A stretch of DNA of 64,000 nucleotides from an uncultured Acidobacteriota bacterium (GTDB lineage Bacteria > Acidobacteriota > Thermoanaerobaculia > UBA5066 > DATFVB01): contig CAWEYG010000003.1 of assembly GCA_963813155.1 (NCBI GenBank), positions 96,001-160,000 on the forward strand, written 5' to 3'. Positions within the stretch are counted from its first letter, which is position 1, and the number at the start of each line of letters is the position of its first letter. Position numbers and translations under genes: made by a program. Under the pieces are notes generated by a model, which was given only the letters and a program-made list of their open reading frames with translations, ran no database searches and was not told where the DNA came from. This document shows, in pieces, positions 45,474 to 49,250 of this stretch.

Positions 45474-45550
45474 TGTCCCCTTTTCGCGGGTCGCGCGATG
45501 TGCAGGGGAGAGGGGTATGATTTTCGAACAAATGCCCATCGATGTCGCCC

Positions 45551-45672
45551 GCCTAACGCGGATCGTCTTAGGCCGACGATTCGGTTGCCAGGTTGTTGGC
45601 TCTTGGAGAGTGGGAGGCCGTTTTGTTCCGCCTATCGCGACAGACCCGCTTCCGCCTAATCACATGCTGGGC
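45551..45672 (+). other. attC site 1 (degenerate)
   Basis: R'' GCCTAAC (45551); inner TTAGGCCGA/TCCGCCTAA inverted pair. R' GCTGGGC(GTTTC) at 45666 is 11/12 complementary to GAAACGCCCAAC at the end of the following cassette. Confidence 0.55.
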
Positions 45673-45689
45673 GTTTCAGCGAGCATTTC

Positions 45690-46061
45690 GTGAACGACGC
45701 CGTTCTCGAAATGTCCTTGGTACTCGTTGTGTCGGTCGCTGCCTACTTAGGTTGGGTCGCCTGTCGGTCAGAGCGTCCCGTCTGGACTGCTCGCAGTGTC
45801 GTCCTATCGTTGCTGACCGTAATCAATGTCCTGTGCGCGGCAGTGTCATTCCTGGGAATCTATGCTCTGGCGAACTTTGCAGCTGGCCTCAAAGCGTCGT
45901 GGTCAGATTGTCTCGTCGGTGGTAGCGTTCTGGCCGTCGTAGCTACCGTACTCGCCCTTCGAAGGCCGCGGCGTGACCTAATCGTGGCCCTAAACGGGGC
46001 GTTGATCGGGCTCTTCGGTCTAGCGTGGCTGATTCTGATCGCAACGTCGGTCCGCAGATGA
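45690..46061 (+). CDS. Cassette 1: hypothetical 4-TM membrane protein
   Basis: Hydrophobic ORF between attC1 and attC2. Confidence 0.65.
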   Translation: MNDAVLEMSLVLVVSVAAYLGWVACRSERPVWTARSVVLSLLTVINVLCAAVSFLGIYALANFAAGLKASWSDCLVGGSVLAVVATVLALRRPRRDLIVALNGALIGLFGLAWLILIATSVRR

Positions 46062-46080
46062 GCGAGCAGAGGGTCGAAAC

Positions 46081-46156
46081 GCCCAACATGTCGCGGCAGC
46101 GGACTTCAGCCCGCCGCGTTGCGCCGGGCTTCGCCGCTGAGCTCAAGGCGTTACCT
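46081..46156 (+). other. attC site 2
   Basis: GCCCAAC-N8-GCAGCGG...CCGCTGAGC-N7-GTTACCT; inner palindrome AGCCCG/CGGGCT. Confidence 0.82.
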
Positions 46157-46172
46157 GTGCGAGGAGCGTGAG

Positions 46173-46646
46173 TTGTTGCGGCAGAGTTGGAAGCTTCGTT
46201 GGTGGCCCCTACTCTGGTCGATCGCGATGGCCTTCTGTACGACGGTTCTCGGGGTAGGCCTCTGGATGGCAGCGTTGGGGCCCGTTGGCCGTGTTCACGG
46301 CGCGCTCATGTTCGTCACCCTACCATTCGTCACCCTTGGGTTTGCGGTAGGTGAGCTGCCGTCCAGGTCGGCCCTCGGGTCCGGAATCCTTCTAATCGGC
46401 GGGTTCGTTTTCTGGGCCGGCACTTCGTATGCCATTCTTCACTTGGCCAGCGGCCCGGTTAAGAGTGAAAGTGCGCACAGCCAACATCGGTATCTGGACT
46501 CCTCCTGCAAGAGGGCGAAGCGCGGGCTCGGGAAGAGGGTTCGACGGGTTGTGAAGAGCGCAGTTGGTGAGTCGAGGATGTCAGGTCGAGACAGCGATCG
46601 TATCTACGGCCTCTTTGTGGAGTCGCGTTGGCGCTCCGGGCCATGA
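46173..46646 (+). CDS. Cassette 2: hypothetical membrane protein (C-terminus reads into the IS end)
   Basis: GAGGAG RBS at 46161 and TTG start; three hydrophobic helices up to ~46440. Sequence after 46490 is IS-derived. Confidence 0.55.
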   Translation: MLRQSWKLRWWPLLWSIAMAFCTTVLGVGLWMAALGPVGRVHGALMFVTLPFVTLGFAVGELPSRSALGSGILLIGGFVFWAGTSYAILHLASGPVKSESAHSQHRYLDSSCKRAKRGLGKRVRRVVKSAVGESRMSGRDSDRIYGLFVESRWRSGP

Positions 46647-46745
46647 TGGGAGCCGCACACGGGGAGCCAATCATTGACAGCGGCTTCTGAGAGCCACCGA
46701 TGTTGTCGGCTTGTCCCCGTGTCGGTCCGACCGAAACCATCATCG
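46590..46745 (-). ncRNA. Predicted bridge RNA/seekRNA of the IS1111 element
   Basis: Stem ACACGGGGA/TCCCCGTGT encloses a bilateral loop with CAACAUCGGU (=46482-46491) and GCUGUCAAUGA (complement of 47907-47916 with one extra nt). A second loop has CCCAUCAU and AGAUAC, matching the IS ends. Boundaries approximate. Confidence 0.75.
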
Positions 46746-46785
46746 AGATCTGATGCGCGTTCACAGGAAGGTCGTGGTCCTTTCC

Positions 46786-47820
46786 TTAATTGCAGGGGCT
46801 CAGGCTTCGGGGTTCGTAGACAGTGTTTCGTGACCAGACGGCCCAGGCGACGCGAGCGAGCTTGTTGGCAAGGGCGGTGGCGGTGCGGTTGTGACCGCGG
46901 CGTTTCTCGACTTCGAGGGCCCAGGACTGGATGCGATCGGGGTTTTTGGAGCGTTTGGCGGCGAGAAGGACGGATCGCGCTCCGTGGATGAGAAGAGTTC
47001 GCAGGTAGGAGTCGCCGCGTTTGGTAATGGCGCCCAGATGGCGATTGTTACCGCTGGAGAACTCTTTGGGGACCAGGCCGAGGAAGCAAGAGAGCCGCCG
47101 GCTCGAGCGGAAGCGGGAGGCCGAGCCGACAAAACCGAGCAAGGCGGTGGAAGTCAGGAGCCCGATGCCGGGGATCGATTGAAGGCTTTTCGCTGCGTCA
47201 ATGTCCTTCGAGATCACCGCGAGCCGGCGATCCCCCATCCGAATGTTTTCCGTAAGCTTTCGGACCTCGTCGCAGAAGGCCAGAAGGATCGGATGAAGGT
47301 CTTTGGGTATGGCATCGGAGGCCAGCGCCTCGGAGACGGCGGGCAGGACGTATCGAGATCCCTGCGGGATGGTGACGCCGAGCTCGCGCAGGATGCCGCG
47401 CAGGATATTCAACCGAGCCGTGCGTGTGGTGATCCACGCGGAGCGCGAAGAGTGGAGAGCGGTCAGGACATGCTGGCCCACTGTTTTGACCGGCACGGGG
47501 AGGATCTGGTTGTTGCGCCCGGCTTCCAGCAAAGCATCGGCGTCGGCACGGTCGGTCTTGTTGCCGAGGCGATAACGGCGGACGTGGTGAGGAGGAAGAA
47601 GCACGACCTCATGGCCGAGGCCCTGGATCTCTCTTGCCCAGTGGTGTGCCGATCCGCAGGCTTCCATCAGAACCTTAGCCGAGGGTTGGTTAGAGAAGAA
47701 AGAGATCATCTGGCTTCTGGTCAGCCGGCGTCTCTGGCAGACGCGCCCCGGTTGCTTCGAGACGGCGATTTCGAAGACGGACTTCGCAAGATCAACGGCA
47801 ATGGTCGTAGAATCACTCAC
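46786..47820 (-). CDS. IS110-family DEDD recombinase/transposase
   Basis: IAVDLAK (D), MEACG (E), KTDRADA (D,D), SIPGIG, GLVPKEFSSG (catalytic Ser) and ALANKLAR motifs; AAGGAG RBS. Confidence 0.95.
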   Translation of the reverse strand: MSDSTTIAVDLAKSVFEIAVSKQPGRVCQRRRLTRSQMISFFSNQPSAKVLMEACGSAHHWAREIQGLGHEVVLLPPHHVRRYRLGNKTDRADADALLEAGRNNQILPVPVKTVGQHVLTALHSSRSAWITTRTARLNILRGILRELGVTIPQGSRYVLPAVSEALASDAIPKDLHPILLAFCDEVRKLTENIRMGDRRLAVISKDIDAAKSLQSIPGIGLLTSTALLGFVGSASRFRSSRRLSCFLGLVPKEFSSGNNRHLGAITKRGDSYLRTLLIHGARSVLLAAKRSKNPDRIQSWALEVEKRRGHNRTATALANKLARVAWAVWSRNTVYEPRSLSPCN

Positions 47821-47976
47821 GGACTTCTCCTTTCATGAAGCTGACCGATCAACCCGGAACAGCCTGGCACAACGATGCCGCACCATGCGGGGAGGAGTCC
47901 ATCTCATCATTGCAGCGGGCGGCGGGCCTGCGGATTGCCGTAGCTAAAGCCGGGTCGTCGAGCACCTGAGCAAGAG

Positions 47977-48714
47977 ATGTCAGTTCGTCAGTGGCTCTCT
48001 CGAATACCCCGAAGCGCACGGATTGGCGCGGGCGTGACATGTGCAATTGTTCTTCTGCCGCTTGGGGCATTTCTCATGTACGCGGGGTTGGCTATTGGCA
48101 ATGATTTGGCAGACAGGGGGCGATCAACGGGAATTCTCGGAATGCAGGAGCTCTGGCCGTTCCTCGGCCTCACACTCTATGCCCTCGTGATCGTCGCGAC
48201 GCCGGTGTCTGTCGGCGGCCTGATCGGCTGGGGGATCGATCGAGCGTTCAAGGCCGCGCGAGGCAGGGAGACGCGTAAGCAGAAACGTGGCCGGTGTCCG
48301 GTGTGCGCCCACGAATTTGACTATTACCTCGTGCATGACGGCTTCAGCGACACGGCACACGCATACTGCGATCGCTGTGGCGCGACGGCCCTTCTGGATA
48401 TGTGGTTCCCACGCATTCCACCCGCCGCGGATCTAAGGGTTCACCAAGCCATCTCAAAGGCGGTCGAGCCATGGCTGTCGCCGTGCCAGTGCGGAGGCAC
48501 CTTTCGCGCTGACGCCTCTCCTCGGTGTCCAACGTGTGGCGCACCGTTGGGGGCCGAAGAATGCAGAGGTTTTATCGAGCGCAATGCCGAAGGAACAAAG
48601 AAGGGGTGGCGGTGGCAGGGCAAATGGGTGGCAACCTACGCGATCGTCGTGGCGAACCGTGTCGTCTATGACAATTGGATTACCGAGAGCGTGGCACATG
48701 GCTCGAAGGCATAA
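47977..48714 (+). CDS. Cassette 3: 2-TM N-terminus fused to a Cys-rich (CxxC x3, CxC) putative zinc-binding domain
   Basis: CPVC, CDRC, CQC and CPTC motifs. The TAA stop lies inside R'' of attC4. Confidence 0.65.
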   Translation: MSVRQWLSRIPRSARIGAGVTCAIVLLPLGAFLMYAGLAIGNDLADRGRSTGILGMQELWPFLGLTLYALVIVATPVSVGGLIGWGIDRAFKAARGRETRKQKRGRCPVCAHEFDYYLVHDGFSDTAHAYCDRCGATALLDMWFPRIPPAADLRVHQAISKAVEPWLSPCQCGGTFRADASPRCPTCGAPLGAEECRGFIERNAEGTKKGWRWQGKWVATYAIVVANRVVYDNWITESVAHGSKA

Positions 48715-48769
48715 CACCGGCGTGCAGCGGGTTTCGCTACGCTCGCCGCTGATGCGCAAGTCGTTAGGC
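48709..48769 (+). other. attC site 4 (canonical)
   Basis: GCATAAC-N8-GCAGCGG...CCGCTGATGC...GTTAGGC, 61 bp. Confidence 0.9.
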
Positions 48770-48809
48770 AGTCAACGCAGGTCCAAACAGCTGAAAAGGA
48801 GTGCGCCCC

Positions 48810-49187
48810 ATGAAGCATAACGATCTCTTGAGTTTGACGTCGATACTCTCCGTGCTTCTGCTTGCCCTGCATATTTCGCAGGACATCGTCTTCGGGTTCG
48901 ACCGCGCAGGGCTCAATCATCTTGTCGGCGTTGCGATCTTGGTCGTCGTTGTCTGCGGCGCCGTGCTGCTCCGAGAACGGCGATTGGGCAAGGTGATCAT
49001 GCTGCTTGGCGGCGTGATGGCCGTCGGGATGCTGCCTCTGCACATGCGGAATGGATTGCGCCCGGAGTTTCTCGAGAAGAGCGGCGCCCTGCTGTTCATC
49101 TGGACGCTCTATGTCCTCGGAGTCATCGGCGCGTTCTCGATTATCCTGGCGATCCAGGCGTTGTTCGCTCGGCGGATCGCTTCGTGA
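48810..49187 (+). CDS. Cassette 4: hypothetical 4-TM membrane protein
   Basis: AAGGAG RBS and ATG 48810; four hydrophobic helices with intramembrane His residues. Confidence 0.72.
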   Translation: MKHNDLLSLTSILSVLLLALHISQDIVFGFDRAGLNHLVGVAILVVVVCGAVLLRERRLGKVIMLLGGVMAVGMLPLHMRNGLRPEFLEKSGALLFIWTLYVLGVIGAFSIILAIQALFARRIAS

Positions 49188-49250
49188 AGAACCGCTTGCA
49201 GCGGACGTCGCGCCTGCGGCCTTGCCGCCCCTGAAGCCGGGCCGTTAGCC
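49183..49250 (+). other. attC site 5 (R'' AAC>AAG variant)
   Basis: CGTGAAG-N8-GCAGCGG...CCCCTGAAGC...GTTAGCC. Confidence 0.75.

Follow-up and report, generated by a model that had tools for sequence, protein, structure and literature searches.

Covariation and fold support a donor-reading second loop in the guide RNA of an attC-inserted IS1111-type element

Bridge and seek RNAs are under development as programmable recombinases. The bridge RNA of IS621 has been described by Durrant et al. 2024 (PMC11208160) and, according to the text of Hiraizumi et al. 2024 (PMC11208158), this element recombines at a shared CT core flanked by staggered cuts; a preprint (10.64898/2026.08.31.748434) reports a single-strand excision for IS621. 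For the IS1111 elements, bridge RNAs provided with donor-binding nucleotides were predicted in 2024 in the right end (PMC11208160). The seekRNAs of members that target attC sites are the subject of Siddiquee et al. 2024 (PMC11187229), the text of which describes only target matches, with experimental data for the target loop, and leaves the role of the long RNA open. For one of these members, ISKpn4, the insertion point is given as AA*CG in CGGCTTGAA*CGAATTGTTAG (Table 1 of the review PMC13604230). In the case of ISEc11, the short seekRNA, which contains the target loop only, was sufficient for transposition, the role of the long form being again left open (PMC11187229, Discussion). What published work has shown experimentally in the IS1111 branch is the target loop, and the role of the second domain has been left open. 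Our literature search met no description of a donor loop or of a crossover position for the attC-targeting members; the figures and supplements of Durrant et al. and Siddiquee et al., which lay outside this search, may bear on the point.

The element described here is located in the window, i.e. the whole stretch of 64,000 nucleotides that was analysed and to which all coordinates refer (see Table 1). It carries an RNA of an already known kind, the bridge RNA or long seekRNA, and is probably an attC-inserted IS1111-type element in which the first loop of this RNA reads the attC target and the second the element's own ends. The donor-binding role of the second loop had been put forward in an original prediction made from the letters of the window.

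The element and its attC site

The assignment of the element to the IS110 family and its IS1111 group rests on the Pfam domains of the transposase (an N-terminal RuvC-like domain, PF01548, and a C-terminal PF02371 domain, as expected for the IS110 family), on the sub-terminal inverted repeats and on the long downstream non-coding region, which on the transposase strand covers ca. 295 nt between the stop at 46786 and the element end at 46491. The inverted repeats are 10 bp long and, with boundaries placed at the inherited crossover, the extensions beyond them are asymmetric, with 9 nt at the left end and 5 nt at the right one. These boundaries (46491..47909) were derived from the comparison of occupied with empty attC sites and from a tally of junctions (see below); a search for a second copy with which to define the ends found a single copy of the element in the window's genome.

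The insertion site is an attC, as had correctly been predicted. The window copy and the four copies found in genome G004 occupy the same point of a repeat of ca. 70 bp, which is recognised as an integron attC by its cassette-like spacing and its GTTRRRY-like terminal box, and the segment 47910-47958 recurs many times at cassette spacing in related genomes. Insertions into the attC sites of integron cassettes were found at one position and in one orientation, as is typical of IS1111-attC elements. IS1111-attC is the group name for attC-targeting elements, whose original literature includes Post and Hall 2009.

The element sits within a small integron-like cassette run (window 45690-49250) made of short ORFs for predicted membrane or zinc-ribbon proteins. 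Between these cassettes, attC-like repeats occur near 46085-46152, 48713-48769 and 49187-49204, and many related genomes have further copies of the repeat at 48709-48769 at cassette spacing. The cassette ORF located upstream of the insertion (46119-46646, + strand) runs via the attC remnant into the element, its natural C-terminus being replaced; when read across the empty site, its stop would fall inside the attC. Large chromosomal cassette arrays were also observed in soil genomes (G004:C1 at 1.61-1.63 Mb and 3.087-3.094 Mb, G006:C2, G544:C18, G549:C14 and G546:C7), with tens of near-identical attC sites and a consensus at the two crossover nucleotides that is genus-specific (AG, AC/GC or AT). 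For the genome itself, the situation is the ordinary one of a single insertion sequence inside a cassette array.

Table 1. Positions in the window of the element, its RNA, its junctions and its insertion site.
Feature	Position	Strand	Basis
Insertion sequence, IS110 family, IS1111-attC type, 1419 bp	46491..47909	-	boundaries = inherited crossover
DEDD transposase gene, 344 aa	46786..47820	-	listed ORF; PF01548 E 6.2e-11, PF02371 E 1.9e-22 (Pfam)
Left sub-terminal inverted repeat GGACTCCTCC (transposase strand)	47891..47900	.	direct reading; kept in relatives
Right sub-terminal inverted repeat GGAGGAGTCC (transposase strand)	46496..46505	.	direct reading; kept in relatives
Non-coding RNA (bridge RNA / long seekRNA), structured core with five helices (P1-P5) and two internal loops	46594..46721	-	RNAalifold
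Target loop, 5' segment CAACAUCGGU	46696..46705	-	complement of right flank ACCGATGTTG (46491-46482), transposase-sense strand
Target loop, 3' segment CUGUCAAUGAU	46670..46680	-	same sense as left flank and junction (GCTGCA-AT-GAT), one extra U
Donor loop, 5' side GCUCCCAUCAU, containing CCCAUCAU	46643..46653	-	complement of left end A-T-GATGAG, transposase-sense strand
Donor loop, 3' side UAGAUACGAU, containing AGAUAC	46597..46606	-	same sense as right end ...CCAGATA plus target C
P4, 3-bp helix closing the donor loop, GCG 46656-46654 / CGC 46596-46594	46594..46656	-	fold; one-sided changes only, support weak
Hairpin within the donor loop: P5 UGGCC 46643-46639 / GGCCG 46611-46607; inner stem GGAG 46637-46634 / CUCC 46622-46619	46607..46643	-	sequence and fold
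Left-junction dinucleotide A-T (transposase strand): A 47910 from target, T 47909 first element base	47909..47910	-	junction tally; X1 contig
Right-junction dinucleotide A-C (transposase strand): A 46491 last element base, C 46490 from target	46490..46491	-	junction tally
Left part of the interrupted attC, ending ...GCCCGCTGCA-A	47910..47965	-	recurrence in related genomes; alignment with G004 attC sites
Right part of the interrupted attC, C-CGAT-GTTGGCT, GTTRRRY-like R' box	46479..46490	-	comparison with G004 and empty attC sites
Candidate -35 hexamer TTGCAG of a putative junction promoter	46505..46510	-	consensus scan of the computed junction; not evidence of function
Candidate extended -10 TGA-TGAGAT, at a distance of 17 nt from the -35 in the computed junction	47901..47909	-	consensus scan only

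Fold of the RNA and partners of its second loop

A protein search of the genome contigs returned the four G004 copies and otherwise distant relatives only, at 35-54% identity, so that ends and RNA were collected by DNA similarity. The G004 copies, from a genome of the same family, are 82% identical to the window's element. The RNA region was matched in 25 of 175 genomes of the same order and in 15 of 401 genomes of the phylum, and a 15-mer scan of metagenome contigs yielded 120 stretches, 19 of which display the RNA signature and are true homologues while the rest are chance matches. Overall, the RNA signature occurs in 59 copies, and the comparison of 40 of the loci covered flanks of 300 bases only. 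Within the element, conservation is highest in the RNA region (72-84% identity versus 65-69% for the transposase gene). Genomes G008 and G478 were not used as a basis for any of the claims made here.

RNAalifold was supplied with 48 of the 54 distinct RNA sequences available. The resulting consensus fold comprises an outer helix P1 and two internal loops, the first bounded by P2 and P3 and the second by the 3-bp P4 and P5; both inner helices read UGGCC...GGCCG and each internal loop is built round one of them, in agreement with the original proposal that the second loop has the geometry of the target loop. The segments of the inner stems proposed for the window are present as described (GGCC 46642-46639 with GGCC 46611-46608, and GGAG 46637-46634 with CUCC 46622-46619). 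In the consensus structure, 99.2% of cells are paired and seven pairs display compensatory changes; the observed pairing and compensation values were reached by none of 500 shuffles, and slid controls pair at 28-44%. Compensatory changes are located in P1-P3 and in one P5 pair. P4 and most of P5, which frame the second loop, hardly vary and are thus helices without covariation support; the four of five P5 pairs that are invariant are neutral with respect to the helix, neither for nor against. The motif AGAUACGA is, together with P4 and P5, nearly invariant among the relatives. No match to Rfam was obtained at E up to 1 within 45500-49000. Its two internal loops, carried by a single RNA from the element, are a feature of bridge RNAs or long seekRNAs.

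The 5' segment of the first loop matches the right flank of the insertion at 10/10 positions, and in the relatives this segment differs from one element to the next, each version fitting its own attC flank. As for the second loop, the minus strand reads, in DNA form, CCCATCAT at 46650-46643 and AGATAC at 46605-46600, and the ends on the + strand read CTCATCAT at 47903-47910 and GTATCT at 46490-46495. Direct reading bore out the 7/8 match between the 8-mer CCCAUCAU and the left end, with coordinates and letters exact, as well as the exact reverse complementarity of AGAUAC (46605-46600) to GTATCT. The sequences of the ends had thus been quoted correctly, but their outermost bases, T47910 and G46490 on the + strand, do not belong to the element and are target-derived according to the empty-site and junction data.

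Words this short may be matched by chance. When the 290-nt non-coding region was shuffled 20000 times with its dinucleotides preserved, a match of at least 7/8 occurred in 16.4% of the shuffles, an exact AGATAC in 1.2% and both in 0.26%; the two matches in the right order and 20-70 nt apart were met in 0.04%. This test is post hoc and the decisive evidence must therefore come from the relatives, in which covariation provides the stronger argument.

On the 5' side, the ten bases that precede the left inverted repeat (positions 1-10) were compared with the ten RNA bases that precede P5, taken as their complement, over 26 distinct pairs of guide and left end from 39 copies; L164, whose end is unalignable, was left out. 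The 5' segment had been expected to covary with the left end and it does so: at positions 2-9, cognate pairs match in 171 of 208 comparisons versus a mean of 154.4 when the ends are redealt among lineages (20000 permutations, p ~1e-4), and at the variable positions 2, 7, 8 and 9 they match in 70 of 104 versus 53.5 (20000 permutations, p ~5e-5), p-values that are indicative only since the lineages are related and independence is overstated. Cognate pairs include AGGATGAG with CUCAUCCU in L004, AGGATGAA with UUCAUCCU in L006 and the L178 group (G548/G542/G549 copies), ATGATGGAA with UUCCAUCAU in L166 and, in the window, ATGATGAG with CCCAUCAU (7/8, the window's own 5' guide having one mismatch to its left end). 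That the original matches are chance resemblances is extremely unlikely in the face of this covariation across 26 lineages, of the conserved place of the segments in the fold and of the rarity with which shuffling reproduces their order.

On the 3' side, the segment expected to follow the right end is almost invariant: of the 59 copies, 58 have AGAUAC, and all 45 distinct right junctions have CCAGAT or TCAGAT as the right end. The sole AUAUAC copy is L164, which is also the sole element with the right end CCATATA, the 3' side and the right end thus changing together in this single divergent case; covariation of the 3' guide comes from this one lineage only. Because the 5' side varies and the 3' side does not, the two sides of the donor loop are not simply one helix together. 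Taken with the consensus fold, the 5'-side covariation and the joint change in L164 support the reading of the second loop as donor-binding.

The second stem-loop could also serve RNA structure, processing or protein binding only, or be a terminator, and its likeness to the ends would then result from other constraints on them, for instance the junction promoter. A protein-binding scaffold would be expected to keep P4, P5 and the motif AGAUACGA nearly invariant, as they are, and the covarying bases of the left end are at the same time those of the candidate -10, which places a second constraint on them. Moreover, ISEc11 needed only the short seekRNA with its target loop, according to the text of PMC11187229, so that the second loop may be dispensable. 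This explanation nevertheless fails to account for variable bases of the 5' side that track, as complements, a left end 1.25 kb away, and equally for a 3' side that changes with the right end in L164; we regard it as unlikely. A further alternative is that the 5' segment pairs with RNA and not with DNA, acting as a cis antisense to a transcript through the left end and so regulating the transposase. The complementarity would be identical for a DNA or an RNA partner of the transposase-sense strand, but a transcript from the candidate junction promoter would be expected to start downstream of the paired bases, the 3' segment is in the sense of the right end and cannot pair with a sense transcript, and the two-strand pattern mirrors that of the target loop, all of which makes antisense regulation very unlikely. 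Reading of both DNA ends by the second loop thus remains the interpretation that we retain.

Several observations concern the relatives and the loops themselves. In L183 (G549:C14), the right end occurs twice in tandem, as ...GGAGGAGTCCAGATA-G-GAGGAGTCCAGATA-AGGTGTTAGG. In L018, L021, L022, L180, L181, L186 and L191, the RNA and the right end are present and no left inverted repeat is recognisable at the usual distance; these copies may be truncated, longer or rearranged elements, and L022 also contains masked bases. In each loop, the 3' side carries a C-G-A motif directly after the crossover nucleotide, as X-C-GAU at 46670-46673 (target loop) and as A-C-GA at 46597-46600 (donor loop), in alignment columns 75-79 and 152-155. 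GA is the start of the left end (GATG...) as well as of the commonest attC flanks (GAGG...), so that this motif could pair with either partner.

Junctions and the inherited crossover

Empty sites in five related genomes of the window's own family read CGCTGCA-AG-CCGAT-GTT in 58 of 78 pattern matches, none of the 78 having the AT-AC form, and among 28 pattern matches from a neighbouring family, 23 have C as the second nucleotide after GCTGCA. In the arrays that hold L185 and L183, the empty sites read CCGCTGCA-AT-GAGGTGTTAG in 18 of 19 (G544:C18) and 16 of 28 (G549:C14) cases, and the occupied sites have CCGCTGCA-A-G-GATGAAGT... as left junction and ...CCAGAT-A-T-GAGGTGTTAGG as right junction, which indicates that the element entered precisely between A and T and left no duplication. 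The absence of a target-site duplication is seen directly in G544 and G549, where the occupied sites correspond to the empty CCGCTGCAA/TGAGGTGTTAG with the element between A and T. In addition, a contig of run X1 with an empty attC shares the 49 bases of 47910-47958 and departs from the window exactly between 47909 and 47910; as this attC may belong to another cassette with an identical attC, it is taken as supporting evidence only. Among the contigs of four sequencing runs, neither a circle junction nor an empty allele certain to be of this locus was seen, a result that does not bear on their existence.

At the right junction, the first nucleotide is A in 45 of 45 distinct junctions and the second is C in 36, T in 6, G in 2 and A in 1, the T cases occurring in arrays whose empty attC sites read ...CA-AT-GAGGTGTTAG. 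As regards possible handshake guides, which would pair with the other partner after strand exchange, the usual target nucleotide (36 of 45) equals the C of AGAUAC, and this C is retained in the RNA where the junction has T. Among the 28 distinct left junctions, the first nucleotide equals the target-loop base (located two positions before GAU) in 25 and the A of the donor guide in only 8, whereas the second equals the donor-guide prediction in 23 of 28 and that of the target loop in only 5; in 5 of the 28, the second nucleotide does not fit the donor guide. Each flanking dinucleotide is therefore a hybrid of one target and one element nucleotide, which places the inherited crossover between the two and delimits the window element as 46491-47909.

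The non-identical 2-nt core suggested from the window thus holds in substance, with the refinement, drawn from the empty sites and from 45 right and 28 left junctions, that each dinucleotide combines target and element. The circle junction is predicted to read ...CCAGATA/TGATGAG... in the transposase sense, i.e. ...CTCATCA/TATCTGG... on the + strand (the slash marks the joint); of the AT and GT forms that had been offered for it, AT follows from the junction data and GT does not. The donor guide predicts A-T or A-G and empty attC sites read X-C, A-T or A-G; donor and target do not have the identical core dinucleotide of the IS621 model.

Right flanks shorter by 1-2 nt than the empty-site consensus of the host were found in at least nine insertions (the window; L014-L017; L021, L162, L188 and L191). 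These flanks are AC-CGATGTT or AC-GATGTT for the window and G004 (empty sites AG-CCGATGTT) and AC-GTTGTTAG for L188, L191, L162 and L021 (empty sites GC-GCGTTGTTAG). The pattern matches of empty attC sites included none of the short form.

Other placements of the boundaries were considered and set aside. An element of 46492-47908 with a shared AT core would imply a target of the form ...GCTGCA-AT-ACCGATG..., as which none of the 78 empty-site matches reads. An element ending in ...CCAGATAC, with AC as its own bases, is at odds with the T found as second nucleotide in six distinct junctions, in arrays whose empty sites have T there. Finally, a staggered exchange in which replication resolves a heteroduplex core predicts both reciprocal outcomes, only one of which dominates.

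We tentatively propose, as a possibility that the present data leave short of probable, that donor and target need not share a core in the attC-targeting clade, that the exchange is either single-strand (copy-and-paste) or zero-stagger, and that the C of AGAUAC guides to the target nucleotide and not to the element. Such an exchange, more than the IS621 scheme with its staggered cuts round an identical core, would fit the natural insertions, nearly all of which display one and the same outcome out of two.

Proposed mechanism and comparison with known systems

By analogy with IS621 and ISEc11, from which RNA-DNA pairing in a synaptic complex, a circular intermediate and a junction promoter are borrowed, transposition could proceed as follows. 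The transposase would bind the guide RNA, the first loop of which would pair with both attC strands. In the second loop, the CCCAUCAU side would pair with the transposase-sense strand of the left end, and the AGAUAC side, being of the same sense as the right end, with the opposite strand of that end. The abutted ends (...CCAGATA/TGATGAG...) would in this way be held beside the target in one complex of transposase and RNA, and strand exchange would insert the circle. The layout of the candidate -35 and -10 recurs in most lineages in the consensus scan.

Dozens of independent attC insertions make up this clade, and the natural covariation between second loop and left end that is observed in it speaks for RNA-based reading of an element's own ends in the IS1111 branch as well. 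The many empty and occupied attC sites constitute a natural record of the position of exchange where donor and target cores differ, and this record bears on off-target and mismatch rules.

When compared to IS621, as presented in the texts cited above, the RNA described here is likewise a single non-coding RNA with two internal loops, one for the target and one for the joined ends, each of which in IS621 pairs with both DNA strands, and the DEDD transposase likewise has PF01548 and PF02371. It differs by its position downstream of the transposase gene, by a reversed order of top- and bottom-strand guides within each loop, by the 10-bp sub-terminal inverted repeats of the element, and by cores that are not the same in donor (A-T, A-G in some lineages) and target (X-C or X-T), with an inherited crossover between the nucleotides. 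Among IS1111 elements, ISCARN28, ISAzs32 and ISPa11 also have predicted donor-binding nucleotides in the right-end RNA (Durrant et al., Extended Data Fig. 10c). Many IS1111 RNAs are described as having these nucleotides in a multi-loop (PMC11208160) where a simple internal loop is found here, a comparison made by description only.

ISEc11 shares with the present element the sub-terminal inverted repeats, the asymmetric extensions and the lack of target duplication (text of PMC11187229) and differs in its target; its junction promoter is formed from the two ends (same source), whereas the candidate promoter here is a consensus match only. The extensions beyond the repeat are of 9 and 5 nt here versus 7 and 3 given in the text of PMC11187229 for the family, the difference of 4 being alike. 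The closest likeness in target is to ISKpn4, ISPst6 and ISPa25, the attC-targeting IS1111 elements with seekRNAs of Siddiquee et al. 2024 (PMC11187229), from which the present element is set apart by a distantly related transposase (35-42% identity to the best proteobacterial matches) and by its hosts, which are soil Acidobacteriota-like genomes. As far as the text of that study describes them, these elements have in common with it the insertion into attC, the 3' non-coding region and a top-strand match located 5' of the bottom-strand match. The AA*CG given for ISKpn4 in the review corresponds to ...GCTGCA-A*C-... here, i.e. to the same insertion position.
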